Positions 12,097-36,460 of a stretch of 64,000 nucleotides of DNA are shown piece by piece. The DNA lies in contig CM060731.1 in assembly GCA_030704615.1 (NCBI GenBank), positions 38,068,001 to 38,132,000 of the forward strand, read 5' to 3'. Source of the DNA: Takakia lepidozioides. Lineage: Eukaryota; Plantae; Bryophyta. A program made the translations under genes and the position numbers. The stretch's first letter is position 1. Each line of letters begins with the position of its first letter. Below the pieces are notes generated by a model. The model made no database searches, was not told where the DNA came from, and saw only the letters and a list, made by a program, of their open reading frames with translations.

Positions 12097-14591
12097 CTCC
12101 CACTCAATTAAACCATATCATTGAGCTACTTCGTTTGTCTTTGGAGAAGAGACACCAAGTAAGGCTGAACACTTCATGTGTTTTGTTTGTTCGTCAAAAC
12201 ATCCACAACCATATCTCTTGTAGCACAATAGATCATCTTGATCTCTCCCTTGCATACAACTTCCCGTATGTAGTGATGTTGCACTTCAATATGCTTCGTC
12301 CTTGAATGATACTTCGGATTCGGACTTAATGCAATCGCACTTTGATTGTCACAATAGAGAGTCATAGGTAGTGATTAGAGATGATCCAAATCTCCAAGCA
12401 ACTTCCGTAACCAAATAGTCTCCTTTGTTGCTTGTGTAATGGACATGTACTCAGCTTCTGTTGATGATAACGCTGTTGCAACTTGTCGTTTGCTAGACCA
12501 AGATACAGCTCCACCTGCTAGGAGAAAACAATGGCCTGAAGTTGATTTTCTACTATCAACGTCTCCTGCCCAGTCAGCATCAGCAAACCCCAACAAACTT
12601 AGATCTTCCACTCTCTTGTAGAGTAGACCAGAGGTTGATGTTCCTCTTAGATATCGAAATATCCTCTTCACTGCTTTCCAATGGGTTTGTCCGGGATTTG
12701 AAAGAAATTGTCAGACCACTCCCACTGAATGTGCAATGTCTGGCCTAGTACAAACCATGCAATACATCAAACTGCCGACTGCGCTTTGATAAGGAGTTTT
12801 CCTCATATCTTCTTGCTCTTCTTGAGTCTTAGGTGCCATATCCTTCGTAAGTTTCAAACCAACTTCGAGAGGAGTTGATGTTGGCTTACTCATCTCCAAT
12901 TTAAACCTTTGTAGAATTGTCTCAATGTATTGTCGTTGATGCATGAATACTGTATGGTTCACTCGATCTCTACTGATTTGAATACCAAGATAGAACCGAA
13001 TCTCACCCATGTCAGTCATGGCAAACTCAGCACTCAACAGTGTTTTGGTTTTTGGCAACAACCTTTGATGATCGTTGGTGACAATGATTGTGTCATCCAC
13101 ATATAGAGCTATGATCACAAATTGCTCTCCCATCTTTTTCACATAGATGTTTGTGTCAACAATGCTTCGCTCAAATCTTGCCTTTAAGAGGTAAGCATCG
13201 ATCCTAGCATACCAAGCTCGAGGACTTTGTTTGAGTCCATACAAACTCTTTTGCAGCTTACACACAATATCACTTCCTCATTGTACAAACCCTTCAGGTT
13301 GTCTCATGTAGATCTCTTCTTGTAGTTCTCCATTCAGAAATGCGGTCTTAACATCCATTTGATGAACTTCGTGATCATGTTGAGCTGCAAGAGTTAACAA
13401 CACTCTGATAGAATAAATCTTCACCACTGGTGAGAAGGTTTCATTGTAATCCACTCCTTGAATTTGTGCATAGCCTTTAGCTACAAGACGAGCTTTGTAC
13501 CGGTAAATAGATCCATCAGCTTTGTACTTCAACTTGAAGATCCACTTGCAACCACTGGCTCTTCATCCTGCAGGCAACCTAGTGAGTGTCCATGCTTTGT
13601 TTTGCATCAATGAATCCAACTCTGAGTTGATTGCTTCTTCCCATTGTAGTTTGTCTGGAGAGCGCATCGCTTCCTCATATGTAGCAGGCTCAACCACTTG
13701 TGATGCTTCTTCCATAGCTTCAATGGCACTCATAGATATAATCAGCCTACTAGAAGCTTCATTTCCCGCTGAGATCTCCTTAGAATTGGCACATCTTCAA
13801 CTTCATCTCTAGAGTCCATATCAACAAGTGGTTCACCAACTTCGACTCCTTGATCAACTCCATCAAGTTGAACACCTCCATCATTTGCTTCAGCCATCTC
13901 TTGTATTGGCTCCTCATAAGACTCCTCTTGGAAATGGTGTAATGGCTCTAAGCTCATTCCCATGTCATCTTCTCCCACTACCAAAGAGGGTATGAAGCCT
14001 TCATCAAACACTACGTCCCTACTGTGTTTGACAGCCTTAGTTGTCTTATTGAACAATTTATATCCCTTCACACCTTCTGTGTAGCCAATGAAGATGCATC
14101 CTTCTGATTTGGAATCAAGTTTCCTTCTTCTGAGTAGGGATATGGACATATGCACGACATCCAAAAATCCTACAATGAGCCACACTAGGCTTCTGACCAC
14201 TCCATACCTCTTCCGGTGTTTTTCCCAACACTGATTTGGTAGGTATTCTGTTGTGAAGATATGTTGCAGTGCCAACAGCTTCTGCCCAAAAATGATTTGA
14301 AAGATTCACTTCTTTCAACATACTCCTTGCAGATTCTTGTAGTGATCTATTCATCCGCTCAACTACACCATTCTGCTCAGGTATATATGGAACAGTAAGC
14401 TGTCGAGCTATTCCATTCTCTTGACAAAACTGATTGAAAGTCTTTGAGATGTACTCACCACCATTGTCAGATCTCAAAATCTTAAGAGGCTTTCCAATTT
14501 GTTTTTCTGCAAGTACTTTGAACTCCTTGAATTTCTCTAGCACTTTTCTGCCTTAGGAAATTCACCACAACCTTCCTTGACAAATCACCTA
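11790..14591 (-). mobile_element. 5'-truncated, decayed Ty1/Copia LTR retrotransposon (integrase-RT-RNase H)
   Basis: Integrase motifs (LRSDNGGEY, PEQNGVVERMNRSL, KLDSKS), RT motifs ([38 protein letters not shown]) and RNase H motifs (ADADWAGD, STEAEY, CDNQSAI, RTKHIEV) in Copia order. Broken by stops and frameshifts, and cut inside the integrase at 14591. Confidence 0.95.
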
Positions 14592-17500
14592 GGGGGTGCA
14601 CTCCAGCCAATACGTACCAGCCACGTGCGTGCACAGGAGGGGGTATTTTAAACCCATCCATGTACAACATTATACATATAGAGGGGGGTTTATATCACCT
14701 TAAATATAATCTTACAGGAGGGGGTTATAGAATTTTAGGAGTAGTCTAGTGGTAAGGGCGTAGAATGTGTCGTGACGCACCGCGGGATCAAATCGCGATG
14801 CAATGTTGTTTTGCTTTTCTTTTTTTTCTTTGCTCCCAGCGATCTGTCTCCCGCGGGCTCTCTTTTCCCTCCTCCCCCGCACCCCTTCCGTGTCAGCATA
14901 GTCTTAGCAGGCCGAGAGAGAGAGATTATAATGTTCATAGGGATACTGAATTATGTTCTTTGAAGAGTCTTCAGGTAGAGGTAGCACTTACACAAGGCTT
15001 AAGGCTGCTTGAGAAGTGGGAGCATGCTACGCTGCACTTGACACAGTGGACCTGGCCCATGTTTGAGCTTCATACTTGGGTAGGGAAGCCCTTCAAGGAT
15101 GACATGTTGTTGATGTTTCATACTTGACTTGATGACATCCTCAAAATATGAGAGGTTAGTACTGTGTTACACTAGCATCTAGGAGTTAACCGAAGTCGGG
15201 GTTGACTCTCTGTTCAGTCAGATATCATTATGCACACAATAGGTGAGAACTCATTCATGCAGACCTGTTCTTGCTGACTAGAGCTAGGTTTTGCATCAGA
15301 AGAGTACATGGTGACATCTGACATGCCCTCATCTTAGTTAGATTGCAGCGGCTTACGTAGCATGTCCTTCCTTCAGTGCTTGAGCCTTGTTGCTACAAAG
15401 GGTGGAAAATCAAAATGAACAATCTGTTACAAACAATGTTAGCGCAGGTACATGAAAGGCTGCTGATGCTAGTCTCTGCAAATGAGATGCGCTCATTGGC
15501 TGAGCGTGTGTTCCAACCTTTCTCTACTGTGAGACCTTTTGAATGCACGTCGACTGCTGAGAGTCTGTGGAAGGTTGCTTTCTCCCACCTGTTCACTCTA
15601 AGGGCTCATAGTCTTGTTTCAGTGGTAATAAGTGGTATTGACTGAAAAGACTTTCTCATTCTAGTCGATTTAACAAAATATGTAGATCTTTATCTGCTTT
15701 CTCAACGAGGTATAGGTGAAACCCTAAAAGCACATACATGTGCTGAAAGATGCATGCAAAGGGTTCGATAATTTTGGTTTGGCATCAGAGCAGCATTCTA
15801 GGACGCCCAATATTTACAGATAGATTCATGTTGTATGTCTGATGTAGGCTGCTTTGGTGGAGTATGAGGAAAAGATGCTTCCAATAGAGGGGAAGATAGC
15901 CTTAAAACTACGGGAACTCTTTTGCTCTTCTCTCCTACCTTCCTTTGCAGCATCTGTCAGAGAAAATGCAAACAACTCTGTTTCAGCTATGGCTCGGCCT
16001 CATCAGGTGGCAAACTTCTTTCTTCTGGTTATAATGCGTTCCTTAGACCATCTGGTGTTTGCAAATTTCTCTTTAGCTTTCAGGAATGTCCCAATTGCAC
16101 TGACTTTATATGCAAAGTTTCCCTCTGTTGGGGAACCTTAGTAAATGAAGGCTAGTAAGAAGATAAAGAGGTCGATGTATCCTTGCACAACCACATCTTT
16201 TTAAATGGTATGTGTTTTGTTGTGTTGATAGTTGTGTGTGTACTGCGCAGGTTTAAAGAGCTCTTTGGAAAACCTCTTGTGGTGCAGTGTCTGGCAAGTG
16301 AAGGACATAGGCTCATCTCACTAATTCAAAGGTGATTGGCAGAGAGTCACAATTTTTTGTTGTTGTTTGATGCCCTTTGTTGTTCTTTGTCCGTCTCCTG
16401 TAGAGGAAATCAAAGTCGCAAGCTCCTCAATCAAAAGCATTCCTACTTTGTGTTGTGTGAAGGAGGAACCATGGAATCATTGATATGCACCAGTGTCAGC
16501 ATGCAGGCATGTTGAGGCTCTGAGGAGTACATTTGAAGAGAAGTGTGTTGTGTTCAGCACCCATAATAGAAAGAATGAATTTGATGTGGCCTTGCCCCAC
16601 TGCCATGCGGGGATAGTTGTTGGAAGTAGTAGAGTCGTCCCTATTTTTTCATGTTGAATTCTGCAAGTTAGATCGTTGGTGGATCTATGGTGGTTTTGGA
16701 GTGATTTTGTGCTCCCTGTACCTTCTTCTTCAACCTATTTCAGTCTGTTTTGCCCTCTCATCATTAGGGTTTAGGGTGTTTGCTGGAAGAACTTCATGCC
16801 ATCAGTGTCAGCTGCTAGTAGCAAGGCTGAGGATGTATTCATGATTTGTCCACAGGCAGGGATAGCTAAGGACCAGGGATAGAGGTCCAGATTCATCCAA
16901 GAGGGCCGGATTTCAAACACAAGTTTCTTTCTGCTTCTCTGTGGATCAATAGCTACAAGCAATCGCGCGGGTAGATGGTCAATTGGAAACATCAGCGGCA
17001 ACAGTGCAATTGATAGAACAAGGCAATGCTAATGAAGGTACATTCTTCAACACATTTCAGCCTGTTTTTCCCTGTTATCAGAGTTTTTCCATGTTTTTGC
17101 CTGAAGGAGCAGGGATAGAGTGTGGGTCTAGATTCATCCACGAGGGTTGGACTTCAAGCTCCAGATTACCTTGATTCCATGTGGGTCAGTAGCTACAAGA
17201 AACCTACATGGGTAGATGGTAAACTAAAGGCAGCTATTGCAGCGGCACAGATGATAAGTTCAGGCACCTCAACCATGACCACAGCTTTTGAAAGAGGATC
17301 AAGAGATGGAGTCCACAATGCCTCTTCTGACATTTCTGGGCATGTGAAGATACTTTGTGCGGCAGACAGCCTGACAGAGGCTCTACAGATTCTAAACCAA
17401 TGAGGCATTTTAGCAGATTCAGATATGTATGTTTGTCTCTTGCTTAAGTGCATCACTGTCACCAACCAGGGCAAAGGTGGGGCCACTCCTTGGATTAAAA

Positions 17501-17682
17501 CGTATAAATATGTTGGCTTCCTTTAGCATGCAAAGGAAAGAAGGAAAAGACATAAACAGTTCGGTTTTCCTTCAGACCTATGTTTGATCCAATCTCAGAT
17601 CTTTACCTTTGCAATCCTTACCTTTGGAGATGTACTTCAATGATATGTGGGCAGAGGGAGGATGGTTTCCAGTGGGAAGCTA
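14592..17682 (+). repeat. Left inverted arm (~3.09 kb)
   Basis: Colinear reverse-complement match to 33055-36159 with only scattered substitutions and small indels. Paired ORFs in the track confirm it (15376+/35106-, 16617+/33895-, 17193-/33251+). Confidence 0.95.
14975..16331 (+). pseudogene. DYNC2H1: Captured genomic fragment (at least 4 exons with introns) of cytoplasmic dynein-2 heavy chain (retrograde IFT motor), N-terminal tail region
   Basis: AG/GT-bounded exons 14975-15154, 15448-15573, 15848-16006 and 16251-16331 read VEVALTQGLRLLEKWE..LTQWTWP..HTWVGKPF..(R)LDDILKI(R)E / VHERLL..RVFQPFSTVRPF..ESLWK / AALVEYEEKMLPIEGKIALKLRELF..PHQ / FKELFGKPLV..LASE. This is colinear with the DYNC2H1/DHC1b tail as I recall it (QW..LTGQVW..RLEEVLAIRTIHEK..RVFEPF..PLWKAAVSQYEK..EQKIAGKL..YKELVKRP). 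Two in-frame TGA stops. Confidence 0.8.
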
Positions 17683-19349: not shown

Positions 19350-21956
19350 CAGAGAGTTCAAATGCCTCTCCACCATGACCTTGCTTAGCTAACCATGCCT
19401 TGCTGATGTTGTTGTCTTGCACTTGAGTTGTTTTTGGACACTGGCTGGAACATCCACAAGGCGGCTCTGCTCGAGAGAGAAATCAGCTTGAATGCAGGGG
19501 CAGATTTTGAGATCACAATCGCCACTCAGAACGTTGTTCTTTGCACCGGCATGGCATGTCAGCATGCATATCAGCCCAAACTCATTACTCCGTGAGCCTT
19601 CCACTGCCGGAGTGTGCCCATTCAAGCTAGATCTTCGAAACGCAGGGATGGAACGGGGTTTTGAAACCAGCATTGCCTAACTGGATACCCAATTCAACTC
19701 CGCATCTTGGTCCATTAATCTGCTGCACATTGTGAAGTTTTTTGCCCGTTCACCGCAAGTTGAATAAGGAGTATTCTTAAAACACGGGTACTCATAATCT
19801 GAAAATGGCTCCAGCTTATGTTGCTTGAGTGCGAATATGAGTGTTGGTTGGCTTGGCAGCTTTACATCTGGTCCATCCCACTCGATATGATGAACAGGTT
19901 CAGCTTGACTTCTCTCACACAAAAGACGCTGCCAAGATGGGGTTCGCCGCCCTAGATGACTTCCCGTCGTTGTTTTGGGCTGCAACATACAATTAATCTG
20001 GCCCATGGCGAGGGGCCTTGCCTTCCACCAATCATCTATAAGTCCTATGAAACTGTTTTTGTGGCAGTTTGTAAGCAGTGGGCAGCGATGGTGGGCTGTT
20101 GTAGGATTTGATGAACTCAATGTCGTGTACTGACAACAACCCCTCATCTCTTATGCAAGCATTCAACAAGCCAAGTTGACTGCAGAGCATATTGAGCCCC
20201 CCACGTTTCTAGTTGCCTAATGTTCTTCATCTCCTGGGCAGAGCATTTTCCAAGGTCTCCATCTGTGATGACACACTATCTTCTCATGTGGTTCAGCTTC
20301 TGGTCTTGCGCTTGTTTGCACCACCCCAATGAAGGGCAGTTCCCACCTGCTTGATTCTCTCTATATGGTTGTCTTGGGTCTTGGCAGGGTTTCCCACAAC
20401 CGCCTTTCCTTTTCAGACTGCCAGTCATCAGCCTCGTTCTCCAATGCTTCACTTTCTTCCCAAGTGAAGTGCTCTCCTCTTTTATGCTTCAACGTCCCTG
20501 CAGGTGTCTTTTCCTTCATCTCCCGTGGTGCTTTCGAATGAATGAGCACTGATTTACATCTGTTGGCAACACTTACGGTGTCCCTTTCCTTGCATGCCAC
20601 TGCAGGCCCGCATTGACTTTCTTGGCAGGGAAGTCTCCTCCTTCTCCCTCATTTTCTGGCTCTGTTGGTGCCCCACTCACCATGCTATCAGGGAGTCTTC
20701 TTGGCAAAGTCTCCCACGAGCTCCCATCAATTTCAGGCATCAGGTTTTCTACCCTGCCCTTCCACTTTTCATAAGCGAGGTGCATGTCTTCCTCCCTTTC
20801 ACTCTTCAGCGTCTCAGGCAGATTTTTCTTCATGCGATTGCTGCTCCCATACTTCCAGTCCTTGTTTAATTTTCTCCAGCCATCACCCTCAGATTTGACA
20901 AGGTATTGTTGCCCTTCCTTGTGTCTTTCCTCACTCCCAGCTGCTGGTTTTATCCGAGATTCACCTCTCATCCTTGCCTGGGGTTTTGCTTGCCAAACAG
21001 CCCTTGTGTGGGGAACTTCAACGAAAGGCAACATCTCATTCTCAGCTCCTGTCTTTGTACCTCTTTGCAGCAGTCCAGCCTCGGGTGCCTCACTTTCTGA
21101 TTGTTGGGTTGCATTCTTCGCCGCCAACCTTTGACAAGAAAGTGTGCTCCATCTTCCTCATCTCCTACTGGTTCCCTTGATGCTTCACCTCATATGTCTT
21201 CCTCCTCATGTTTTAGCAGCAGTTCCCATGCTTGAATTGCTACTTTTCCTCGTAGTTGATCTTGTGCTTTCCTTTTTCTCCGTAGCCTAATCAACAGTTT
21301 TGTCTTGGCAGCTCCCTTGCCATGAGTGCCTTGTCTCACTGCATCTCCCTTGGCTGCCCACCATCCTTGGAGTCTTTCTTGCACTATTCTGACCCTCGTT
21401 GGCATGCACTTTGCTGTGATGCCCCACATGTATTTGCTGCTCCCTTTAATCATCAACATAGTGCTCTAGAGCCAGTTCCTCATTGTTGACCAATTGACCT
21501 TCTCAGCCCTTGGACCCCATTTTCCCTTCTCCCATGTTGCCTCGTCTTTCTGCTTCATCGTTTGCTTTACTAGCACGATGTTGCTTCTTCCCTACAGCTC
21601 ATCATGTGTTGTGGCTCTTTCCCATGTTGCACTCACTCCCATCATACGTTGTGCAGTTGATAAGACGGAGATGAGTTGATGCAGGATAGGGGGAGGGCTT
21701 GCTGGTGTATGTTGTCTGATAGGCCCTATGCACAGAGTCAAAGCTGGAAGTCAGCCTTGCAAGGACCCAAGTGAGAGAAGTCTGGTGGGGTAGCATCTTG
21801 GGGGATGGCAGTTAGGGCAATGTGTGTCTAGGGCAATATATGTCATAGCAGCGGGTGATGTGCTGCCAATTTTGAGGATAGAGACAGCCTGTAAGCTGTA
21901 GATTTGTATAAGTGGTTTCTTCTGACACATATTGCTCCCAGTTTGCCACAACCAGT
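19350..21956 (-). mobile_element. 2.6-kb insertion with a decayed, unidentified long reading frame (possibly retroelement gag-like)
   Basis: Splits a PPR motif exactly (CATTACGTT at 19341-19349, TGTTTGCATTTGTAGTGC resuming at 21957). Carries a chain of minus-strand ORFs (21190-21459, 20573-21127, 20361-20600, 19677-20147, 19389-19673). Confidence 0.45.
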
Positions 21957-22102
21957 TGTTTGCATTTGTAGTGCATGTGCAAGCCTGCTGGGGAAGGGCA
22001 AAGAGGTCCATGGTTGCATCGTCAAAGCTGGAATTGTGGCAAATGTCATTCTGAACAATACCCTTGTGGACAGGGAGTGTTCAACAATATGGCTGAGCGA
22101 AG
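21957..22102 (+). pseudogene. Continuation of the interrupted PPR fragment
   Basis: VCICSACASLLGKGKEVHGCIVKAGIVANVILNNTLVD, nearly identical to 19085-19230. Confidence 0.8.
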
Positions 22103-22109
22103 GATAGAG

Positions 22110-23200
22110 TGTAATGACTGCTAATGAAGGCACCTTCTTCAATTTCACCTTGTTTTCCCCTCTTATCAGAATCGCTTCTAATTATTCATGTCTGAATTCT
22201 GCAAGTTAGCTGGTTGAGTGAAGCTTTGATAGTTTGGAGTGACTTTGACATGATTCTGCCAATGTGACAACAGGAAAATATCATAAACAGGTAACACAGA
22301 CGAGGAGAAGTTGTGGAATGAATATTTTTCTGACCCCAGTCAATGGTGGGACAATCGAGGCAAGAAGGTGAATGTTTGTTGGATTATAGAGAGTAGCAGA
22401 TGCAATTGAGCGTAGGAACTAGTGTGATAAGTTGAGTTGGGTGCTTCCTAGAACAAGTCTAGGCTGTCATCGTCAACTGCTAGCAACAAGGCAAGGTTGT
22501 ATGCATGATTTGTGCGAGGCATGGATAGTTGAAGGAGCAAGGATAGAGTGTGGGTGCAGATTCACCCAAGAGGGCCAGACTTCAAGCTCCAGATTAACTA
22601 TGAAGCTACAAGAAACCTGCATGGGTAGATGGTCAACTGGCAGCAACAGCACAATTGATAAAATCAGACATTGTTAATGAAGGCATCTTCTTCAGCACAT
22701 TTCACCCTGTTTTTCCCTCTTATTAGAATCGGTCCAAAATTTCCATGTTGAATTATGCAAGTTAACTGGTTGAGTGAATCTAGTTTGGAGTGACTTTGAC
22801 ATGATACTGCTATGTGACAACAGGAAAGTATCAAAAAACAAGTAACAGACATGAGGAGAAGCTGTGGAATGAATACTTTTCTACCCCCAGTCAATGATGG
22901 GACAACCGAGGCAAAAAGGTGAATGCCTGCTACATTTCAGAGAGTAGCAGACGCAATTGAGCATATGAACTAGTGTGATAAGCTGAGTTGGGTGTTTCCT
23001 AGAACAAATGTAGGTTGTCATTGTCAGCTACTAGCAGCAAGGCAAGGATGAATGCATGATTTGTGCAGGGGCATGGATAGTTGAAGGAGCAGGGATAGAG
23101 TGTGGTCCAGATTCATCCTAGAGGCCAAATTTCAAGCACAAGATTTACCTATGATTCCCTGTGGATCAATAACTACAAGAAACCTCCATGGGTAGATGGT
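22110..23200 (+). repeat. Diverged tandem copies of an ~550-bp repeat family (R) also present in both arms and, inverted, at 30440-31170
   Basis: Shared motifs GCTAATGAAGG..CTTCTTCAA..CATTTCA..CTGTTTTTCCC, GGAGCAGGGATAGAGTGTGG, CTACAAGAAACCT.CATGGGTAGATGGTC and TTTTCTGACCCCAGTCAATG.TGGGACAA. Confidence 0.8.
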
Positions 23201-23429: not shown

Positions 23430-24774
23430 CTTTCATCGTTTGTGCATTTCTAATGCATGATTAGTTGGTAAGCCATCTGTCAAGCCTGAGGAAATAGTCT
23501 TTCCTGGATACATTAGAAGAGTTCTTTGAGGACGATTATTCAGAGGAAGCCAAGATACAGACAGCTGCTCTGCACCTCCGTGATGCCGCCAAGCTATGGT
23601 GGTCGCGCCAGAAACAGGAATGCCGTGAACACAAGAAACCACCTGTGGTAGTTGGGCTATGTTTAAGACACTATTCTTAGCCCACTACCTACCTGACGAC
23701 TATGCACACAAGATGAAAATGGAACTGTTCAGGTTGAAACATGAAACCTTGAGTGTTGGTGAATTCAAAACTAGATTTGAAACCCACGCAAGCTACTTTC
23801 CTTCCCTGAGTGAAGAAGACAGGGTTGATTTCTTTGTGGATGGCCTGAATGATTCCCTTACAGAGGATTGTGACTCAGGCTCGTGAATTTAAGCCAGTTG
23901 CAACGCCATCTTGGCAATCAACTAAGAAAAAGGGGAACTGGAAAAGGTTCAAGCCCTATAACAAGAGGCAAGATGGCTCGAATAATCGAAGCCATCGCAG
24001 GTAGAAGCCCCTGCACGGCTCAGTGCCAAGGAACGGGAAGAGCATAGGCGCAAAGGATTGTGTTTCATCTGCCATGAGTGGGGTCACAGGGCTAGAGAAT
24101 AGACAACCTGAACCTGGCTCAAGAAGATGTGCAGCCTTCCCACATTCTGCTACCCAACGGCGGTGTGGAGTCTATGCACAGACATCTGTCAGACGTGCCA
24201 ATGATCCTGCAAGGTGTATACACGACAACAAATTTTGAGGTTTGGGATGGAGCTCGGTACGACTGCATCCTCGGTATGCAATGGCTGGATCCAGTGGATG
24301 CGGTGGTAGCCTGCAAGCTCGAAACGGTCAGTGGGACTTTGCCAAATGGAGAGGCATTTAATCTTAAAGGTACCAGAGCCCTTCCTAATGTCCCAGTCTT
24401 GTCAGCCTTGCAGATAAAGAGGATTAAGTGGTTGGGTAAAAGAGAATGAACTAACATTGAATTACCCCTCATTTTCTGTCATTGAGGACAATGACCTGCC
24501 TTTGGGAGGGGGAGCTTGTTAGGTGCCTATGGAGCCCGGACTGGAACAGCGGACCAGCCCATCAGAGAAGAACGTAACCGCTAAACCTTGGGGGGCTGAT
24601 CTTTACGGACACCTGCAGGTGACAAGAACTGGGCAAGCTGGTGGTTTCAAGAAGCTAGGGATTGGTGAAGAAGATGTGGTAGAGTGCGACAAGAAAAAGG
24701 ATGGTTGTAGCGCGGCCTTATGGAACCTGAATTGAGGAGAAGGACAGATGATTTGAAGAGAGGGCCTGAGATCT
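23430..24774 (+). mobile_element. Internally deleted Ty3/Gypsy remnant: gag, zinc knuckle, protease, PPT and start of 3' LTR
   Basis: Gag (SWAMFKTLFLAHYLPDD..LFRLKH..SVGEFKTRF..FVDGL), zinc knuckle (RRKGLCFICHEWGH) and protease (YDCILGMQWL). PPT GGGAGGGGGAG at 24504-24514 is followed by TGTTAGG at 24517. Confidence 0.85.
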
Positions 24775-25441
24775 GAATAGGATGTGTGATATATGCATAG
24801 AGGAGATGAGAACATAGCATGGTGTGGCGGTTGGGTGAACCGGAGGAGTAATCCGGTACTGTGCTGTCAGGAATAGATAAGGTAGAGATGAGCGGTAGGG
24901 TTTCTTGCTGACTGAAATCAGAACGTGATGCCTTCTCTACCTAAAGTGTACAAGCTGTGAATAGAGTTCTAGTCAGGTTTATACTAAGCTTGAACTGACT
25001 AGAATCCCTATGATAGTGAACAGAGGAGTGCGTTGATTTTTCCCCGTTGAATATAATCAAGGGGACCGCTCCTTCTTTTGAGCTTTTGGAATGAGATCAA
25101 CTGCATGTGGCTTCATGTTATAGAATTGAGAACTAGTTGGATGGAAGTGGTGCTATTGTTGAGAACTGGGCAGAATGTGTAGAAGTACTCCTTTGCTCAC
25201 TATCATAGGGATTCTAGTCAGTTCAAGCTTAGTATAAACCTGACTAGAACTCTATTCATAGCTTGTACACTTTAGGTAGAGAAGGCATCACGTTCTGATT
25301 TCAGTCAGCAAGAAACCCTACTGCTCATCTCTACCTTATCTATTCATGACAGCACAGTACCGGATTACTCCTCCGGTCCACCCAACCGCCACACCATGCT
25401 ATGTTCTCATCTCCTCTATGCATATATCACACATCCTATTC
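24775..25441. repeat. Near-perfect hairpin: 255-bp arms (24775-25029 / 25187-25441), 157-bp loop
   Basis: Direct reverse-complement comparison shows about 6 mismatches and no indels by eye. Confidence 0.95.
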
Positions 25442-25601
25442 TGTAAATATACAAAAATTTACAATTTTTAAAAAGTACCCTATGTATATTCTCATTTTCC
25501 ATCATTAAAAATAACCCTCCAATATGTATATGTATGTTTTTATATTATATCGAATTTATTCATTTAAAACATAATAAAATCTAACAAATTAATTAAAAAA
25601 A

Positions 25602-28600
25602 TTATTTGCCTTTGATAAAGTTGTCAAAGACTTTTCGGTCATTTGCATCAAGTACATATATGTTTGACTTGACATTGTACTTTAAACATGCTAACGTGAT
25701 AATGGAATCCAAATCAACCATCATGTTATCCGTCAAATCGTACGTATAGACCCCTCCTCGAGTTTTTTGGTACCATGCTAACCCAATCTCCATATGAGAA
25801 GGATGCTCCAATAAATCAACAGAATCCCTACATTCTACAAACCGCTTATTGATTTTCTTCCGCATTCTTTGAACCCTGCCCAAATACCAAGTGCCTTTGG
25901 TTGCTCCTCTGCAGGTTTTCCCTGGTCTGCCTTTCCTGTTTGTAGTTTGGATCGCAGTCTCCTCATCAACAAAAAATACAGCACAATCCGAACCCAATCC
26001 CAAGCTCGTGGCTTTGTTGCTGGTAGTTGGTTTGTTTTCTCGGCAAAACAACATCGATGCACTTCTTACTCGTGTCAATCTATCCTTGGATAGAGTAGGG
26101 TTGCCATTGAGTTGGTTAACCAAAGTGCTTTTGAATATGGTCTTTCCGTCTACTTTGACAAATGGAACCACCACCTTCGATCCATCTTTCTCTTGTTCAA
26201 ACTCATCAATGACAGCATCCAGAGTATGTCTCAATTCACTTTGAATAAGTACATCTTCCGCATGATCATCCAAAGGTTGGCTCAAAACATCCTCCATTGA
26301 ATTCGAAGGCCCGCACACCAATTCATCTTCCACGACCTCATTTTGAATATGTGTGTCTGCATTAAGAGGACAAATATAATCTATGGCATCGACATCATCA
26401 CCCTCCTCTTCCATGCTTTTGAATAGCTCGGCCTCCATTTGTCTCTCAATTGTCCATGGCTCATTCCACCAATCCAAGTTTGTCGCTTTGTTTGGTTTCA
26501 TCCCAAGTTTATGGCATAAAAGTTGCGCTTCTAGAAATCCAGTTTTCAAAGCCTCCACAATGCAATCATCCGATTGGACAGTAGAAAAGTCGGACAAATC
26601 AGCAAGGGGGATACCTGGCTTCTTCTCCAAAGAAAACCAAATGTGTTCTTGTTTCTTGTGAGCTCTTGAGAACTTGGGTCCTTTTGGATTCACCTCGAAC
26701 TCGGATATGCGTGTTAATGCTCCCGCACTCTCAATCAAATCACACCCGTCATATGTCCTCTCATTCCGTAACATACCTCCCACTTTGCTGAAGAATATTT
26801 CACACACATCTGAACCAACAAGGCTCAAAGGAACTTGCACATGATTAAACTTATCCTTGAACAATTTGATAAGTAGAACCACGTAGTGGCATGAAATTTG
26901 TAAATCCAAGTATGCTTCCCTGCTAATGAAGAAGGATTTCAGATTATACACCTCGTGGTGGAATAACCACAACTTCCACAATCTGAAAAAAAACGATACC
27001 TTCGCAGCAGATTGCACCCTCTCACACAATGACATGTGAGGAGACAAAAAAATGTCGATGTAGCATGAAATGATGTATAGGTAAAATTCAGTACATTTGG
27101 TCCTCTCCCTTCGATGATTCACAGTTGATTGTAACTCCCTCAAACAAGCTTGCACCTTCCGAGATGCCAGTCGTTGAGCTGCTGCCCAATTCTGTCGATC
27201 TTCTCTTTTGATATCACATTCCCGAAGTCCATGCTTGTCCACTGAAAATGAATGGTAGACCAATAACACATGATTCAATGTAGCAACCTCATCACCCAAC
27301 ACCAAAGTCCGTGATGCACTGTCCAAGGGATTTACCAATTTTTTCCCATTGTGGATGAAGTCCTGATCATGGAGTCCGTTGCACACTGGACCTGTAAACA
27401 ACCATCCTTCCCAAGGGATGCAAAATCTACTTCCAGCCCCATTGGCATAATCTTCTAACATCACTTTTCTCCTCCTACTATCTCCGTCTGAAGCATGCCC
27501 AATTATAGGCCCAACCACGTCCCTCACATATTTGTCCCACAACTGTCTCACCACTTCCCATTGTGATCTCACAAAATTGTTGTCAAATCTATTGCAAGTG
27601 AGCTGGATTACCAATACCAATCGAGGTAATTGTACATGTAGAGGATTTGCTATCAACACTCTGGCGTAATGGGCAACCACATTGTTTTTGAATGCCTCCA
27701 CAATATGTTCGTACCCTGATTCCCCTTCTCCCACTTGCACCACAAAATTTGAAATACATACATGGTTGTCTTGAAGCCCACAGAACCCGAGAAGGGTGTC
27801 ATCCCTAGCAATCCAACGTACCAATCGCTTCACAACAGTTTCATCTTCGGCCACCATCACTGGGATGCTTCCCATTGGAATATTTGCATCTTCCATCACA
27901 TCTCTGTAAATTCCAGCCACATGCTGAAATATATCATCCATTTCTCCCGCTCTATACTTCAAACCTTTCCTCAAAGACCGTCTTGTAGTATCAATAGAAG
28001 GACCCCCCACATTTGAAGCCAAAAAATGATGCAATCTCGAACCCCCCCAAAGCTGCACAGTCTCAAACATTGTTTTTGTGCTAGTACCATACCTCTTCCC
28101 TTGTGGAGACCTGTCAATATTCTTGCCCATATCAACAATAAAATCCCACAAACTTTCTTTTCCTTCAAAATCCCCCTCCTATGTGCATCAACAATATCAC
28201 GACAAAATTTGAGAACATCTCCTCTTTCAATTGCCTCAATCCCAGACTCCTTCAAACTCCTACATCGCACAGACAAGGATGCCACTTTGGTCCTGGCCTC
28301 CCACAATTTGAACCTCAACTGCCTCAACTCCTGTCTGTTTTTGTAAACTTGTTTGACAATCTCGACATTTCCAAGATATGACAACCTTCTTCCCTTGCCA
28401 GTATCTCTCTCCCCTCTATATTCCATGGCACCTCTCTCTCTATATACCCTCATTCTGAAGTCATTTTCCAAGGGAATGGAAGAACATGCTGAACACCTCA
28501 AGTTTGGAAATGGCTCCCCATCCAATGACACTCTAAAACAATCCGCGTGCCGAAACGTACCAACAACCTTATGCTCTTGATTGTTTAGAGTGATGGTTGC

Positions 28601-29995
28601 ATGTGTCAACGGCTCGACATACCACTTCTTTCCTCCCTTGCTATCTTGAAGGAATGGTTTCAGACTTATTCTCTTGTGGTTGTACTCCCACCATTCATCC
28701 CATAGGCCCCAACACAAACTGTTCTTCCTTTGTTGCATTGGGACCTTCGCTGTAATTGTCAATCCTCAATCAGATCTGCCGTTGGGCAGCGTCAACACAA
28801 GTGTATGGAGTTTGTGACGAGGATGCTCCCATTGTTGATGCCACAATTGGATTGTCAAGTGGTGGGGACGGCAACACAGGTTGACTGACCAAGAAAGAGC
28901 TTAGATCCCGTTGCTTTACATCTTTGGCAATCATAGGCTTTGGAGGCCTTCCTCTCTTTTTGCACAGTCCTTCACTACTTCCAACCTTCTGGCAAATCTC
29001 TGCATCGACATGAGTTTTTCCCTTCACATGCTCTGTCAAAGAAGATTGCAAAGAACCTGTCCTTGGAAACAAGAGTAGCCACTTCGAATCAAGTGCGCAC
29101 TTAATCCTTATGGAACCCAACTGCGAATAGTCTCCAATTGTGGCTTCCACAATCTCAAATCTGTTTCCAGGATTGTCCTCACAAAACCGAGCGACTTCCT
29201 CTAATGCCTCCTTCACCCTGTTCTTCTTTGCATCTAATGCTTCATCTGCATTTACAGGGCTGATGACACATTGTGATGAACCCTTCCCATGACGCCTCTC
29301 ATAGGCTATGCGATGCCCCTCACTCCTCAAATGAGATCTCATAAAGTTTGCACATGCATCATATGGTTTGTTTTTCCCAGACCGTGCATAAACATCCTCA
29401 CACTCAACACACCATATGTGGAACATTGTTTGTCCTTGTTGATCCTTTGTCATGAGCTCAAACTTGTCACATCGTCCTTCTGCAGAGATTTTCCTTTCAA
29501 CGGCTCTAATCTCTTTCTGCCATTTTTGAATATCGCTGGATGTAGCCAATGTGCTGCACAATCTACCATATCTCTGTTGAAGTGCATGCTCATGTGCATG
29601 GTCTTCATTTCCACCATCGCCAGCAAAGGGTGTATCAGGGTCCATCCTCATCTTTTTAGACACTGGTGCCGGGTCCTCGCCTGGTCTGTCCTCATGCAAG
29701 ATCGTAGAACCACTGGAAGATAGAGGTCTTTTCAATCCTTGGTCCCCATCATTTTGGTCTGAAATCTTAATGTGTACAGTATCCCCTTTCAGAACCATCC
29801 TCTCTTCCTGCTTGGCTGAAAGGACACTACCCCCCATGGAAAGGAAATGAAATTTTCCTGAGACAAGCTCATCACTAGAATTTCTGCTCGGATGCATTTG
29901 TATGTGACACCTTGCATAGTGAACACAGAACCAAGCCTGTTTGGTGATGCATCTCCTCCAACGAGCAGGACTTTTACTTCCAACTCTTCTTCCAT
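25602..29995 (-). mobile_element. P-element/THAP9/Galileo-superfamily DDE transposase gene, mildly decayed (~1,460 codons in 4 ORF pieces; catalytic 849-aa part uninterrupted)
   Basis: Motifs in P-type order: AEDETVVK (D1), GHASDGD (D2), QDFIHNGKKLVNPL (DxxH), EDRQNWAAAQRL and GSDVCEIFFSKV (E). Upstream pieces are joined by apparent frameshifts at ~28150, ~28770 and ~29875. ATG at 29995 is preceded by a TTTTGCAG acceptor. Confidence 0.75.
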
Positions 29996-30439
29996 GATGA
30001 GTTCACCTGCAAAATGCAATGAAAACATTTCAAATCAGACCTTGATAGACCAATAACAAAGCACCCGGGTTGGAAGGTTCCAAAGTCCTGTTTTATACAG
30101 CCCTATAGGCTGTCCAAGCAGGGACTACGTTGATAAGAGGATGAAATGTGTACAGAAGCAAGTACCTGATTGATGAGTTTGATGCTGCTAATTCTTGCTG
30201 CTGCTATTGACCAAGTGCTGCTACTTCCACTGCTGGTAGCCCTCTTGGGTGATCCTGAACCCACAGTCCATCCTTGCATCAGCGGCTAGCCCTCCCTCCA
30301 CACTAACATATTTAAATACAAAGTTATGTCAAACTCCCTACGATGTTGCATGAAGAAAGCTCACCTTGTTGACAATATTGTCCCACCGCTGTGGATCATA
30401 TTTATAGAACTCCTGCCAGCGCTGTTCCTTGCTCCAAAT

Positions 30440-31170
30440 CTGGCCCTCTTGGATGATTTTGCACCCACGATCCTCTCCCTGCATCAACAGCTACCCCTCC
30501 CTCCACACTAACAATGCGTACATCATGCCTCTGCAGCTGCTACAGTGGCTTCCAGTTGACCATCTACCCATGCAGGTTTCTTGTAGCTATCCTTCCACAT
30601 GGAATCATAGGTAATCTGGAGCTTGGAATCCGGCCATCTGGAAATTTAGGGACGACTCTGATAACAGGGAAAAACAGGCTGAAATGTGTTGAAGAAGGTA
30701 CCTTCATTAGCAGTCCCTTGTTCTATCAATTGCGCTGCTGCCGCCGCTATTTCCAGTTGACCATCTCCTACATTGTCCCACCACTGACTGGGGTCAGAAA
30801 AGTATTCATTCCTTGAAAGCTTCTCTCCATCTCTGTTATCTTTTTTTAGGTACTGTCATGCTGCCACCTCGGCAGTAACTTGCAAAGTCACTCCAAAGCA
30901 CCGCAGATCCACCCAACGAGCTAACTTACAGAATTCAATACATATGCTTCAGGGCTGAGTCTGATGAGAGGGAAAAACAGGCTGAAACAGGTCAAACCAG
31001 AAGGTGCCCTCAGGCTGAAATGTGTTGAAGAAGGTACCTTCATCAGCAGTGCCTTGCTCTATCAATTGCGCTGCTGCCGCTGCTGTTTCCAGTTGACCAT
31101 CCACCCACATTGTCCCACCATTGACTGGGGTCAGAAAAGTGTCTCATTCCAAAGCTTCTCTTCATCTCTG
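30440..31170 (-). repeat. Repeat family R copies, inverted relative to 22110-23200
   Basis: CTGATAACAGGGAAAAACAGGCTGAAATGTGTTGAAGAAGGTACCTTCATTAGC and TTGTCCCACCA.TGACTGGGGTCAGAAAAGT each occur twice. They match 33655-33770 directly. Confidence 0.8.
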
Positions 31171-33051
31171 TGGTGCTATTGCAGGGTGACTTCAATGCCC
31201 AAGTGGGCAAAGGGCTCCATCAGGACGATATCATTGGGTCTTCTGGTGAGGACGAGCTGAATTCTAATGGCAGACGGTTAATTAACTGTCTGGAAGAGCT
31301 TCAGCTTTTGACCTTGAATAACAAGACAAGAGGTGACCAAGTGCAGTGGACTCGTGAGAAATCCCAAACTGGGGAACGTTCCATTGTGGACTATATCATA
31401 ATGGACAAAAATTTGTTCCCCCAGTGTGCCAATGTGTTGATCGACAGAACTGATATTGGTACCTCTGACCACTTCCTGGTTTGGACTGAGATCAAAAGGT
31501 GTTTTCCCAACACCAGAGTAGAAGAGATTCTCAAGGACCTGGACCTGGATCCGCAAGTCTTGACCCTGCTGGATAAATCCGACTTAGAGGCTGTAGTGTC
31601 CAAAGCCATGTCTGTTGCCATGAGATTGTCTGATGAAAATGAAGTTAGGCAGAAAACTTCCCTGAACTTGTTTCTAGTCAGTGACATGGGGGAGGACATC
31701 TTGGATGACCTCAAGGGTCCACCCACTCTCGGCACTAGACTGAAATTTAAACTCAGGGAAGGAAGCCTACCTTTGAACAGCAAACAGAAGCAGAGAGGAA
31801 AGGGGGAGTGCACTTCCCATTGTGTGGGCAATCTGAAGACAATATTCATTTTCTGATACACTGTCCGGGGTTCTCTCACCAAAGAGACGCTCTCTTCAAA
31901 TCTATCAAGGGAATTGTGCATGAATTGTCCTCCAATTGTAATTGGGATGCACATATCCAGAAAGTTGTTCAAACTGGCAAGGGCAAAGCTCTGGGGCTCA
32001 CTAAATTTTTCCACTGCAGAGGGGTCAACTCTGAGGTTAAGAAAACCATGCTTTCTCGCGTTATTAGACCTGCCTTGGAGTACGGATCTGCTATATGGGT
32101 TGATAACTCCAACCAGGCTAAGTCTCTAGAATCCATTCAAGTGGGGGTGCTTAAGGAGTGTATGTCAGCATGCTCCAAAACAAATGTGGCTGTTCGGGGT
32201 GAGTTTGGCATTCCATCCTTAAGCTCCCGACGAGATGAATTCAAGGTCAGATGGTGGGGTCAGCTGCAACATATGCCCAACACCAGATATCCTAAGTTAA
32301 TCGACTCTATATCTTGGAAACAGGACCGCCCTGTCAAACAGGCGAAGCCCTGGCAAAAGAGAGTAGAAAAGATTCTCAAGGACCTGGACCTGGATCCGCA
32401 AGTCTTGACCCTGCTGGATAAATCTGACTTAGAGGCTGTAGTGTCTGAAACCATGTCTGTTGCCATGAGATTGTCTGATGAAAATGAAGTTAGGCAGAGA
32501 ACTTCCCTGAACTTGTTCCAGTCAGTGACATGGGGGTGGACATCTTGGATGACCTCAAGGGTCTACCCACTCTCGGCACTAGACTGAAATTTAAACTCAG
32601 GGCAGGAAGCCTACCTTTGAACAACAAACAGAAGCAGAGAGGAAAGGGAGAGTGCAATTGTCCGTTGTGTGGGCAACCTGAAGACAATATTCATTTTCTG
32701 ATACACTGTCCGGGGTTCTCTCACCAAAGAGACGCTCTCTTCAATTCTATCAAGGGAATTGTGCCTGTACCCATGTTTACCAACTTTGAAAGTCTTGAGG
32801 CTGAGCCAAAAGCCCAGGCCCTCCTGAGGCCTAGTTTTTGGGCAAATCACACACAGCAGATTGATGCTTGTGTGAAGGGATTTCTAGAGGATATCTGGAA
32901 AACCCGGATTAATTCTATATATGAAGGTAAGTCTTACTACCAACGTCAGCCCCTGACAGAGGTAGGTTTTGTCCCTTTTGTTCCCGCTCAAACTGGGCGC
33001 GGGGTCAAAGTCCACAAGGCTACGGCAAACAACGTCTTATGAGTACAATCT
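31170..33051 (+). mobile_element. Rearranged copy of LINE family B (endonuclease fragment, duplicated C-terminus, RT core deleted)
   Basis: APE motifs GDFNA, IVDYI and SDHFLV (31170-31500). 31513-31918 matches 60123-60528, then 31928-33051 matches 59689-60814. Confidence 0.9.
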
Positions 33052-33054
33052 AAC

Positions 33055-36000
33055 TAGCTTCCCACTGGAAACCATCCTCCCTCTGCCCACATATCATTGA
33101 AGTACATCTCCAAAGGTAAGGATTGCAAAGGTAAGGATCTGAGATTGGATCAAACATAGGTCTGAAGGAAAACCGAACTGTTTATGTCTTTTCCTTCTCT
33201 CCTTTGCATGCTAAAGGAAGCCAACATATTTATACGTTTTAATCCAAGGAGTGGCCCCACCTTTGCCCTGGTTGGTGACAGTGATGCACTTAAGCAAGAG
33301 ACAAACATACATATCTGAATCTGCTAAAATGCCTCATTGGTTTAGAATCTGTAGAGCCTCTGTCAGGCTGTCTGCCGCACAAAGTATCTTCACATGCCCA
33401 GAAATGTCAGAAGAGGCATTGTGGACTCCCTCTCTTGATCCTCTTTCAGAAGCTGTGGTCATGGTTGAGGTGCCTGATTTTATCATCTGTGCCGCTGCAA
33501 TAGCTCCTTTAGTTTACCATCTACCCATGTAGGTTTCTTGTAGCTACTGACCCACATGGAATCAAGGTAATCTGGAGCTTGAAGTCCAACCCTCGTGGAT
33601 GAATCTGGACCCACACTCTATCCTTGCTCCTTGTGAGGGCAAAAACATGGAAAAACTCTGATAACAGGGAAAAACAGGCTGAAATGTGTTGAAGAATGTA
33701 CCTTCATTAGCATCGCCTTGTTCTATCAATTGCACTGCTGCCGCTGATGTTTCCAGTTGACCATCTACCCGCACGATTGCTTGTAGCTATTGATCCACAG
33801 GGAAGCAGAAAGAAACTTGTGTTTGAAATCCGGCCCTCTTGGATGAATCTGGACCTCTATCCCTGGTCCTCAGCTATCCCTGCCTCTGGACAAATCATGA
33901 ATACATCCTCAGCCTTGCTACTAGCAGCTGACACTGGTGGCATGAAGTTCTTCCAGCAAACACCCTAAACCCTAATGATGAGAGGGCAAACCAGACTGAA
34001 ATAGGTTGAAGAAGAAGGTACAGGGAGCACAAAATCACTCCAAAACCACCATAGATCCACCAACGAGCTAACTTGCAGAATTCAACATGAAAAAATAGGG
34101 ACGACTCTACTACTTCCAACAACTATCCCCGCATGGCAGTGGGGCAAGGCCACATCAAATTCATTCTTTCTATTATGGGTGCTGAACACAACACACTTCT
34201 CTTCAAATGTACTCCTCAGAGCCTCAACATGCCTGCATGCTGACACTGGTGCATATCAATGATTCCATGGTTCCTCCTTCACACAACACAAAGTAGGAAT
34301 GCTTCTGATTGAGGAGCTTGCGACTTTGATTTCCTCTACAGGAGACGGACAAAGAACAACAAAGGGCATCAAACAACAACAAAAAATTGTGACTCTCTGC
34401 CAATCACCTTTGAATTAGTGAGAGGAGCCTATGTCCTTCACTTGCCAGACACTGCACCACAAGAGGTTTTCCAAAGAGCTCTTTAAACCTGCGCAGTTCT
34501 CCCATCACCTGCACACAGCTGTCAGCACAACAAAACACATACCATTTAAAAAGATGTGGTTGTGCAAGGATACACCGACCTCTTTATCTTCTTACTAGCC
34601 TTCATTTACCAAGGTTCCCCAACAGAGGGAAACTTTGCATATAAAGTCAGTGCAATTGGGACATTCCTGAAAGCTAAAGAGAAATTTGCAAACACCAGAT
34701 GGTCTAAGGAACGCATTATAACCAGAAGAAAAGAAGTTTGCCACCTGATGAGGCCGAGCCATAGCTGAAACAAAGTTGTTTGCATTTTCTCTGACAGATG
34801 TTGCAAAGGAAGGTAGGAGAGAAGAGCAAAAGAGTTCCCGCAGTTTTAAGGCTATCTTCCCCTCTATTGGAAGCATCTTTTCCTCATACTCCACCAAAGC
34901 AGCCTACATCAGACATACAACATGAATCTATCTGTAAATATTGGGCGTCCTAGAATGCTGCTCTGATGCCAAACCAAAATTATCGAACCCTTTGCATGCA
35001 TCTTTCAGCACATGTATCTGCTTTTAGGGTTTCACCTATACCTCGTTGAGAAAGCAGATAAAGATCTACATATTTTGTTAAATCGACTAGAATGAGAAAG
35101 TCTTTTCAGTCAATACCACTTGTTACCACTGAAACAAGACTATGAGCCCTTAGAGTGAACAGGTGGGAGAAAGCAACCTTCCACAGACTCTCAGCAGTCG
35201 ACGTGCATTCAAAAGGTCTCACAGTAGAGAAAGGTTGGAACACACGCTCAGCCAGTGAGCGCATCTCATTTGCAGAGACCAGCATCAGCAGCCTTTCATG
35301 TACCTGCACTAACATTGTTCGTAACAGATTGTTCATTTTGATTTTCCACCCTTTGTAGCAACAAGGCTCAAGCACTGAAGGAAGGACATGCTACGTAAGC
35401 CACTGCAATCTAACTAAGATGAGGGCATGTCAGATGTCACCATGTACTCTTCTGATGCAAAACCTAGCTCTAGTCAGCAAGAACAGGTCTGCATGAATGA
35501 GTTCTCATCTATTGTGTGCATAATGATATCTGACTGAACAGAGAGTCAACCCCGACTTCGGTTTACTCCTAGATGCTAGTGTAACACAGTACTAACCTCT
35601 CGTATTTTGAGGATGTCATCAAGTCGAGTATGAAACATCAACAACATGTCATCCTTGAAGGGCTTCCCTACCCAAGTATGAAGCTCAAACATGGGCCAGG
35701 TCAACTATGTCAAGTGCAGCGTAGCATGCTCCCACTTCTCAAGCAGCCTTAAGCCTTGTGTAAGTGCTACCTCTACCTGAAGACTCTTCAAAGAACAGAA
35801 TTCAGTATCCCTATGAACATTATAATCTCTCTCTCTCGGCCTGCTAAGACCATGCTGACACGGAAGGGGTGCGGGGGAGGAGGGAAAAGAGAGCCCGCGG
35901 GAGACAGATCGCGGGGAGAAAAGAAAAAAAATAAAAGCAAAACAAAATTGCATCGCGATTTGATCGCGCGGTGCGTCACGACACATTCTACACCCTTACC

Positions 36001-36159
36001 ACTAGACTACTCCTAAAATTCTATAACCCCCTCCTGTAAGATTATATTTAAGGTGATATAAACCCCCCTCTATATGTATAATGTTGTACATGGAGGGGTT
36101 TAAAATACCCCCTCCTGTGCACGCACGTGGCTGGTACATATTGGCTGGAGTGCACCCCC
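33055..36159 (-). repeat. Right inverted arm (~3.1 kb)
   Basis: Reverse complement of 14592-17682. Confidence 0.95.
34408..35776 (-). pseudogene. DYNC2H1: Second captured dynein-2 heavy-chain fragment (right arm)
   Basis: Mirror of 14975-16331. It retains the two CGA (Arg) codons that are TGA in the left arm, but has its own CAG>TAG at 35705. Confidence 0.8.
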
Positions 36160-36460
36160 CAGGGTCTCCTCCTAGATGCATTTTGTTTGTAAGATGGAGA
36201 TTTGGTCCCGAAGCGTTTGAACATCAGCACTCCTTGTGGAATAGTGACGCAAATGAGAGGCTTGTTGAGAGACCGGGGCAGGAAGAAGAAGCAGAGGGGA
36301 ATTAGGTCAACGTGAGGAGACGGGTAGTCTACCTCGTCGGCAGCCGTCCTTTGGCGTTTGGATGTCATGGTGTGGCGGAGGTGGCGCTAGAGCGCCAACG
36401 CCTGTGAGCGCAGCGCCGACGCGCGAGCGCAAACATGCTGCCGCACACGTGAGAGAGAGA

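Follow-up and report, generated by a model that had tools for sequence, protein, structure and literature searches.

What kind of element lies at positions 25602 to 29995 of a 64,000-nucleotide stretch of contig CM060731.1 of the bryophyte Takakia lepidozioides (hereafter the window), and how did it come to reside in a land plant? A sequence-only reading had proposed a transposase of the P/THAP9 type. Our analysis indicates that the locus is very probably one damaged member of a multi-copy family of DNA transposons whose transposase is predicted to belong to the P superfamily, and that this family is part of a distinct THAP-less lineage, likely long present in seed-free land plants and likely mobile in its host until recently. 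The testable features of the superfamily were all found, namely the fold, the catalytic triad, the insertion domain, terminal inverted repeats (TIRs) and target site duplications (TSDs) of 8 bp; the THAP domain that marks the narrower P/THAP9 group was not found in the window frames or the relatives scanned. The P-type part of the earlier label therefore stands and the THAP9-like part is an overstatement.

One long transposase gene

The gene occupies 25602..29995 on the minus strand, as do all of its features given below, and would once have comprised ~1470 codons. Its largest surviving piece is an uninterrupted frame at 25602..28178, designated P0001, the longest of 16 frames of at least 200 codons in the window. 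P0001 encodes a helix-turn-helix (HTH), a split RNase H domain, a helical insertion domain, an acidic linker and a C-terminal barrel. It measures 858 codons from stop to stop, or 842 from the first Met; the long open frame described earlier is thus real, while its length of 849 codons needs correction. The motifs that had been read from it were all located in the order given: D112-E-T, S230-D231-G-D, D273-x-x-H276, D327-R-Q-N and S456-D-V-C-E460-I-F-F. Conservation was assessed in 106 aligned rows (105 non-redundant sequences from the 136 that cover the core, among 442 proteins, plus one fungal outgroup). Because D112, H276 and E460 are present in 106/106 rows and D231 in 104/106, the motif pattern cannot be put down to chance.

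Two further minus-strand frames, 27971-28765 and 28770-30002, align by tblastn to N-terminal parts of the homologues of P0001, and homologues of 1307-1479 residues align in order to P0001 and both upstream frames. This order argues that 25602-29995 is one gene, with P0001 as its C-terminal part and its ATG at 29995, and bears out the span originally assigned to it. Indels relative to same-species contigs and a frame-restoration test, both described below, lead to the same gene model. Of the sequencing runs behind the contigs cited here, X2 is from the same species, X5 is a plant metagenome, and X6 and X7 are RNA runs by guess only. A splice-acceptor-like site at 30007..30030, 12 nt ahead of the ATG, suggests an intron in the 5' untranslated region (UTR), as does, weakly, one X7 contig that departs from the window at 30004 with 46 letters unaligned.

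The predicted core resembles P transposase

An AlphaFold2 model of P0001 was built from a 49-row alignment (mean pLDDT 83.9, pTM 0.84). Foldseek searches with this model ranked the Drosophila P transposase structures highest, 6p5a at E 2.0e-11 with a TM of 0.67 over the target and 6pe2 at E 5.4e-11, and the next family, RAG1, followed at E 2.4e-4. Superposition by VIA-align gave Z scores of 24.9 and 24.8 against P transposase, with a root-mean-square deviation (rmsd) of 4.3 and 404/442 residues superposed. The superposing core corresponds to 26694..28151 (model residues 10-495 against 6p5a 137-566). It includes the HTH ahead of the RNase H domain (helices 7-97) and an insertion domain between the second Asp and the Glu, opened by the DxxH motif (helices 274-443). 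Transib/RAG, hAT and MULE/IS256 were each considered as the best core match and rejected, all scoring at most 10.6 (Transib 10.6, RAG1 9.7, ISCth4 7.8, Hermes 7.6) with larger rmsd. P transposase was therefore first by both methods when it was asked whether another DDE superfamily might match better. The listed structural matches included neither Kolobok nor Dada nor other DxxH superfamilies. Kolobok uses TTAA as its target site, so the 8-bp TSD of the relatives argues against it. In the ESM Atlas, the first match scored 0.96, with TNP-like_RNaseH_N carried by 13% of the members of that cluster, and 10/10 of the best matches with a family fell in the family or clan of TNP-like_RNaseH_N. When the two ends of the protein were searched separately in the Atlas, the best scores were 0.75 for the C-terminal part and 0.84 for the N-terminal part, which are leads only.

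Catalytic residues and accessory domains

D112, the first catalytic Asp (27843..27845), lies on the strand formed by residues 107-115 and is the putative counterpart of D230 of P transposase; D231, the second (27486..27488), would correspond to D303. The insertion domain opens with the DxxH motif, D273-H276 (27351..27362), whose Asp is present in 102/106 rows and whose His in all 106. At 26799..26810, the catalytic Glu, E460, is invariant, and an Asp three residues earlier, D457, is found in 93/106 rows. This spacing matches D528/E531 of P transposase (residues as given in PMC7776569; papers are cited by PMC number and, unless another part is named, for excerpts of their text). A further cluster, C133/H139/C141/C195 (CxxxxxHxC..C, 27594..27782), is clade-wide, each residue being present in 101-102/106 rows, and is likely a zinc site.

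P transposase binds GTP through D528, K385, K400, V401, S409, F443, D444 and N447 (PMC7776569, in part). When these positions were matched by spacing only, D457 (for D528) was found in 93/106 rows, S339 (for S409) in 42/106 and an Asp or Glu at D375 (for D444) in 56/106, and Asn was not among the four commonest letters at the N447 position. This suggests that the GTP-binding residues are partly conserved.

Where P transposase has its THAP domain, the N-terminal region here contains two candidate zinc fingers of the C2H2/BED type (29010..29414), read from the sequence, with sub-threshold matches to zf-C17orf113 (E 0.13) and, in the Atlas, to zf-BED (0.82). At the other end of the protein is a predicted SH3-like beta-barrel (25635..26018), which folded alone with a pLDDT of 82 and is conserved across plant and non-plant rows, with conserved aromatics at 802, 803, 811, 813 and 841. 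Its nearest neighbors, weakly, are the BAH and chromo-barrel histone readers: it aligned to such domains with Z 6.0-7.3 and rmsd ~3 over 70-86 residues, and the top 19 of 50 listed matches were domains of the chromo-barrel, BAH or Tudor type or proteins that contain one. Foldseek with the isolated barrel gave no match at E<=0.001. The BAH/chromo-like identity of the barrel is accordingly best treated as a lead rather than an assignment. Four distant relatives (P0065, P0107, P0112 and P0424) carry Tudor (PF21743), C1, SAP and PF02902 domains, suggesting frequent domain capture in the transposase lineage.

Several results speak against a straightforward assignment to the P superfamily. P0001 had zero Pfam matches at E<=1, and searches of the PDB by sequence, with P0001 alone and via two family profiles, returned no meaningful match, the Drosophila sequence included. 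Identity to 6p5a is 14-15%, so that membership rests on the predicted fold. Residues were mapped onto P transposase by spacing. Pfam scans found no THAP domain in the window's three frames, where E values up to 1 were admitted, in the 49 aligned members or in 42 further relatives, and the barrel scores (Z <8) are inside the range that common folds yield. The comparison with P transposase and the P-type Pfam domains that had been proposed thus succeeded by structure and failed in the sequence scan.

A separate, unnamed superfamily, sister to P, would account for much of this: in addition to the missing THAP domain, the family has distinctive termini rich in G, a Cys/His cluster kept across the clade and a conserved C-terminal barrel, it comprises 1029 representatives, P-type Pfam domains reach the cut-off in only 1/42 scanned relatives, and even two family profiles failed to retrieve the Drosophila sequence. 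Such a superfamily would, however, have to share with P a core in which 404/442 residues superpose, the 8-bp TSD and the D-x-x-E spacing, and its Atlas neighbors grade into TNP-like clusters. Moreover, THAP is described as confined to animals (PMC7776569, in part), so that non-animal P elements are expected to be without it. We give a separate superfamily a small chance, and continue with the reading that the element is a THAP-less member of the P superfamily.

Ends and anatomy of the element

To place the gene within an element, TIRs were sought directly in the 40 loci of at least 4.3 kb among 80 metagenome loci encoding relatives. A clear TIR was found by this route only in L008, an element of 6096 bp whose TIR spans 49 nt at 84% and whose 8-bp TSD is perfect. 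The bases with which this element begins yield a terminal motif, C[CT]CGGGG..CACT, usually followed ~35 nt inward by CACGTGCGT. Three other loci (L005, L006 and L007) stop at the same motif base and have three different flanks. Both ends are present in L008, L010 and L031, and 8-bp TSDs occur in two of these three, the one in L031 allowing two extra C. Among 22 loci with a nearly complete match, the motif was found downstream of the gene and facing inward in 11, and facing outward in none. A looser terminal pattern (20 matches against 4-14 in 20 shuffles) was too weak alone, and was replaced by this orientation test and by a terminus profile.

The profile, built solely from the ends of eight relatives, had its two best window matches at 36163 (E 2e-4) and 14592 (E 0.007); the terminal motif matched 2 times, where 0.06 matches were expected. 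Oriented toward the gene, the 36163 end is followed by subterminal repeats at 36025-36130, and it shares subterminal words with the letters that an X5 contig has beyond the cut 3' end. The stretch 33052..36163 (minus strand) is hence the likely 5' end of the element, its link to the gene being putative. Between them, at 31125..33051 on the plus strand, is a fragment of a long interspersed nuclear element (LINE) with an Exo_endo_phos_2 match, 96% identical to 59682-60816, which appears to be a later insertion. Downstream of the gene, an AT-rich 3' end (25441..25601, minus strand) is cut at 25441 against a gypsy-like fragment. A depth peak at 25500-25669 in both X2 and X5, and one X5 contig that diverges before 25441, mark this end; the true 3' terminus is missing, since no terminus match was found near 25441 and the window holds one end type only. 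As reconstructed, the element would have started at 36163, crossed a long 5' UTR intron into which the LINE later inserted, and continued past 25441, ~8.8 kb minus the LINE. A search for a second gene in this 5' region revealed no frame longer than 123 codons within 14588-17700 or 33050-36163, although small exons remain possible there.

Some observations count against this anatomy. No read bridges the 36163 terminus and the gene, no TSD is readable at the window copy, L010 has both ends and no TSD, and the terminal motif was absent in 11/22 loci tested, several of them with short flanks. The search for copies with TIRs and TSDs that had been suggested therefore yielded both in relatives and neither legibly at the locus itself.

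The window also holds a second, inverted copy of the 3.1-kb end (14588..17682, plus strand; 97.7% identical), which lacks a transposase. The copies (14588-17682 and 33055-36163) stop matching at the same base, one at the 3' end of a LINE and the other at a sequence starting with CACTAG; a local hop, gene conversion or a one-ended event are candidate explanations of this shared breakpoint. A Galileo-like composite spanning 14588-36163 was rejected because its flanks share no 8-mer and both arms are the same end. Likewise, CCCGGG at 30069 was rejected as an element end because contigs pass through it at constant depth. A 255-nt inverted repeat of 98% identity (24775-25029/25187-25441), in or beside the gypsy-like fragment (protease at 24096-24449), ends exactly at the 3' cut of the transposon and is possibly a scar of hairpin repair.

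A dead copy of a probably young family

How intact is the gene? The X2 and X5 contigs hold one extra base behind each of 28171, 28722, 28778 and 29874, and 15 extra bases behind 27375. When N was inserted at these five places, a single frame of 1483 codons resulted, with one internal TGA at 28761. Relative to the contigs and this restored frame, the window copy has six lesions (four 1-bp deletions, one in-frame 15-bp deletion and one in-frame stop), double the figure of about three given before. The copy is dead, as the full protein cannot be made from it.

The family presents a different picture. Contigs from X2 and X5 cover the gene and differ from the window by ~1%, at 36/3345 letters over seven listed X2 pieces of 303-631 bp, and this low divergence, together with contigs that are without the deletions of the window copy, makes the family look young. 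X2 depth is ~1000-1400 over the gene, several times that of the flank; long near-identical pieces at such depth point to many near-identical copies. The 40 listed substitutions affect 37 codons, 24 of them non-synonymously and 13 synonymously, as expected of a decaying copy. The transposon family is thus probably young and recently mobile in its host, as judged from these contigs. The earlier suggestion of recent activity accordingly applies to the family, which has near-identical contigs free of the deletions, and not to the window copy with its six lesions and lost 3' terminus. Set against this view are the facts that contig depth is not copy number, that no single contig spans the gene, so an intact same-species copy is only presumed, that X5 carries an extra base of its own at 26985, and that the state of the TGA at 28761 in other copies lies outside the 40 listed substitutions.

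The same contigs bear on whether this could instead be a domesticated host gene, as THAP9 is, with breaks that are assembly errors. All listed X2/X5 contigs at the break sites have the longer form (X2 partly so at 28171 and 28778), one break falls in a C5 run, and two runs guessed to be RNA hold parts of the gene, all of which domestication would accommodate. It would not accommodate ~1% substitutions in the proportion of 24 non-synonymous to 13 synonymous and a 15-nt deletion, which fit a decayed copy, nor the excess depth, the TIRs and variable flanks of relatives, and the retroelement fragments around the gene. Domestication has, in our estimation, next to no chance of being correct, and we retain the reading of a decayed transposon copy.

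Relatives in seed-free plants

A search for relatives of near-equal length returned 80 matches, with identity to the full-length query reaching 48%; 12 of them carry an organism name: Adiantum nelumboides (3), Riccia sorocarpa (8) and Calypogeia fissa (1), that is, one fern and two liverworts. Five more Riccia names appeared among the 112 matches of a search at shorter lengths, and a search with divergent members gave 20 matches, one named Mycena vulgaris. The Mycena protein, which has PF02902, is a distant relative (25% over 299 residues). No seed-plant name occurs among the named members of these 80, 112 and 20 matches, most matches being unnamed, and 75 pattern matches in viral contigs included 0 relatives. 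These names establish the occurrence of the element in seed-free land plants that had been proposed. The lineage is large, as 1029 representatives were retrieved by a profile at E<=1e-30. P-type Pfam domains are weak among the relatives, with PF21787 in 3/49 and PF12017 above the cut-off in 1/42 (P0100).

A tree of 50 hand-chosen rows (IQ-TREE quick, LG+G4, no bootstrap; FastTree agrees) grouped the query with every one of the 7 named plant rows in a single clade of 27 rows, with an SH-aLRT of 99 and deep sub-lineages, and the rows outside it formed several clades. The lineage has likely resided in seed-free land plants for a long time, and the tree, in which most rows have no host name, fits vertical retention better than one recent transfer. 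Of the two origins originally entertained, then, the vertical one agrees with the tree and the other agrees with it less well. A recent horizontal transfer into the plant lineage from animals, fungi or algae would explain why the nearest Atlas clusters are commonest in Arthropoda and Basidiomycota, and why relatives outside the plant clade reach core identities of up to ~40% and have the terminal motif too (L031, L035). Nevertheless, the plant clade is deep (37-50% identity over most of the protein), its liverwort and fern members are spread over several sub-lineages, and a supported branch parts it from the remaining rows, as would be expected had it arisen with the early land plants or before them. 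Recent transfer is therefore assigned a very small chance, and long residence in the plant lineage is preferred, an ancient transfer being conceivable.

Outside the plant clade, the terminal motif is found at L031:965-8467 and L035:5389, both loci being placed there by the tree, and at L028:3016, placed there solely by its best protein match; conservation of the termini thus extends across a deep split. L017, L054 and L072 are AT-rich (31% GC), broken relatives with long flanks and no terminal motif, and L017 has a second transposase-like stretch near 8.2-9.4 kb.

Surroundings of the transposon

Starch synthase exons and fragments resembling pentatricopeptide repeats mark the surrounding DNA as that of a land plant. 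A starch synthase exon (Glyco_transf_5, Glycos_transf_1) and a likely upstream exon with no Pfam match lie at 54347-55351 and 61266-61961 on the minus strand, with a LINE reverse transcriptase (RT) frame at 58963-60807 between them. A second LINE family has nearly intact endonuclease and RT frames at 36913-40280 (minus strand). Degenerate repeats of ~330 nt at 30230-31170, 33480-34110, 16650-17255 and 22100-23200 have a contig depth ~100x that of the transposase. Frameshifted repeats resembling pentatricopeptide repeats, recognized by eye in the translation, are apparent pseudogene fragments at 18550-19350 and 21950-22110 (plus strand). Three copies of a gene-like fragment, 89-95% similar and with no Pfam match, lie inside larger repeats at 2395-3526, 42055-43102 and 51061-52178, and were possibly captured by another transposon.

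A proposed mode of transposition and its significance

By analogy with P transposase, an intact element would work as follows. Transcription of its one long gene would start at the left end and probably pass through an intron in the 5' UTR. The N-terminal zinc fingers and HTH of the protein may bind the short G-rich TIRs and the subterminal repeats, of which the TIRs and repeats are seen in the sequences. The protein would bind both ends and then pair them before cutting, by homology to P (PMC7776569, in part). The D112/D231/E460 triad with two metal ions would excise the element and join it to the target with an 8-bp stagger, if the chemistry of Drosophila P applies. The helical insertion domain would hold the transposon end, with or without GTP, two options between which we see little to choose. 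Finally, the C-terminal BAH/chromo-like barrel might tether the complex to nucleosomes and bias target choice, a step we hold to be conceivable and lean slightly against.

Taken to its full extent, this leads to an overlooked, ancient and mobile P branch of seed-free plants that was lost in seed plants, in which C2H2/BED-like fingers replaced THAP, the termini are its own and G-rich, GTP may be dispensable, and a fused histone-reader barrel steers insertion. This combination is possible, if on the whole doubtful. If it is true, the TIR superfamilies in the classification of land-plant transposons would rise to eight, and mosses, liverworts and ferns would gain a native P-like tool. A THAP-less P enzyme ~15% identical to that of the fly lends itself naturally to testing whether the superfamily inherited GTP use and the staggered cut from its ancestor, and a fused reader barrel, if true, makes chromatin-guided targeting of a DNA transposon testable. 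Pfam misses the family, and its members in Adiantum and Riccia have been entered as hypothetical host genes; in the genomes of bryophytes and ferns it therefore likely adds to the gene counts and to the share of repeats left unclassified. What is extended is a known superfamily; the mechanism is not new.

Comparison with known systems

The host range is apparently unreported, judged by the literature alone; Repbase and Dfam may already hold members. A literature search by title and start of abstract found no report of P elements in land plants, a negative on which the superfamily-by-species table of P-MITE bears. Six TIR superfamilies are listed for land plants in Table 1 of PMC9033089 and seven in PMC10741241, with P in neither excerpt; part of PMC6839031 counts seven DNA superfamilies, P not among them, and PMC11735767, PMC12477816 and PMC12730594, in part, add nothing on the family of P0001. 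Non-animal members of the superfamily are described in Chlamydomonas and in fungi (Allomyces, Pucciniales) in parts of PMC9641971, PMC3964958 and PMC5751038, the last of which calls fungal P elements rare; these elements were compared by description only. P-type miniature inverted-repeat transposable elements are mentioned for 'lower plants' in PMC3964958, which PMC9641971 narrows to C. reinhardtii, again in the parts cited.

The closest known system is the P element of Drosophila melanogaster (6P5A, 6PE2), which shares the HTH, the split RNase H domain with D..D..E, the all-helical insertion domain, the Asp three residues before the catalytic Glu, and, with the relatives, short TIRs, subterminal repeats and an 8-bp TSD. 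Its enzyme is GTP-dependent, and its staggered end cleavage leaves 17-nt 3' extensions. In contrast to the 87-kDa fly protein, the protein here would have ~1470 residues, with no THAP domain, an extra Cys/His cluster and a C-terminal barrel. The coding region of the relatives is apparently intron-free (single frames of 1520 codons in L008 and 1517 in L010), unlike that of P, and the elements are 6-9 kb rather than 2.9 kb. Their termini begin C[CT]CGGGG, whereas those of P begin CAT.

Vertebrate THAP9, 1360/Hoppel and Galileo would share the superfamily fold, but no THAP domain was found in the sequences scanned here and the element is not domesticated. The 3.1-kb inverted arms of the window have no TSD and so give no ground for calling them long TIRs of the Galileo type. 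Transib/RAG1, hAT (Hermes) and MULE/IS256 likewise have an RNase H core with an insertion domain, and hAT also makes 8-bp TSDs. P superfamily TSDs are 7-8 bp (PMC3698922, in part). GingerRoot and Replitrons are alike in distribution only, being transposon groups that were recognized late and whose hosts include seed-free plants and other eukaryotes but not seed plants (PMC6839031 and PMC10288648, in part); their enzymes, an integrase-like DDE transposase and an HUH endonuclease, respectively, are unrelated to P0001.

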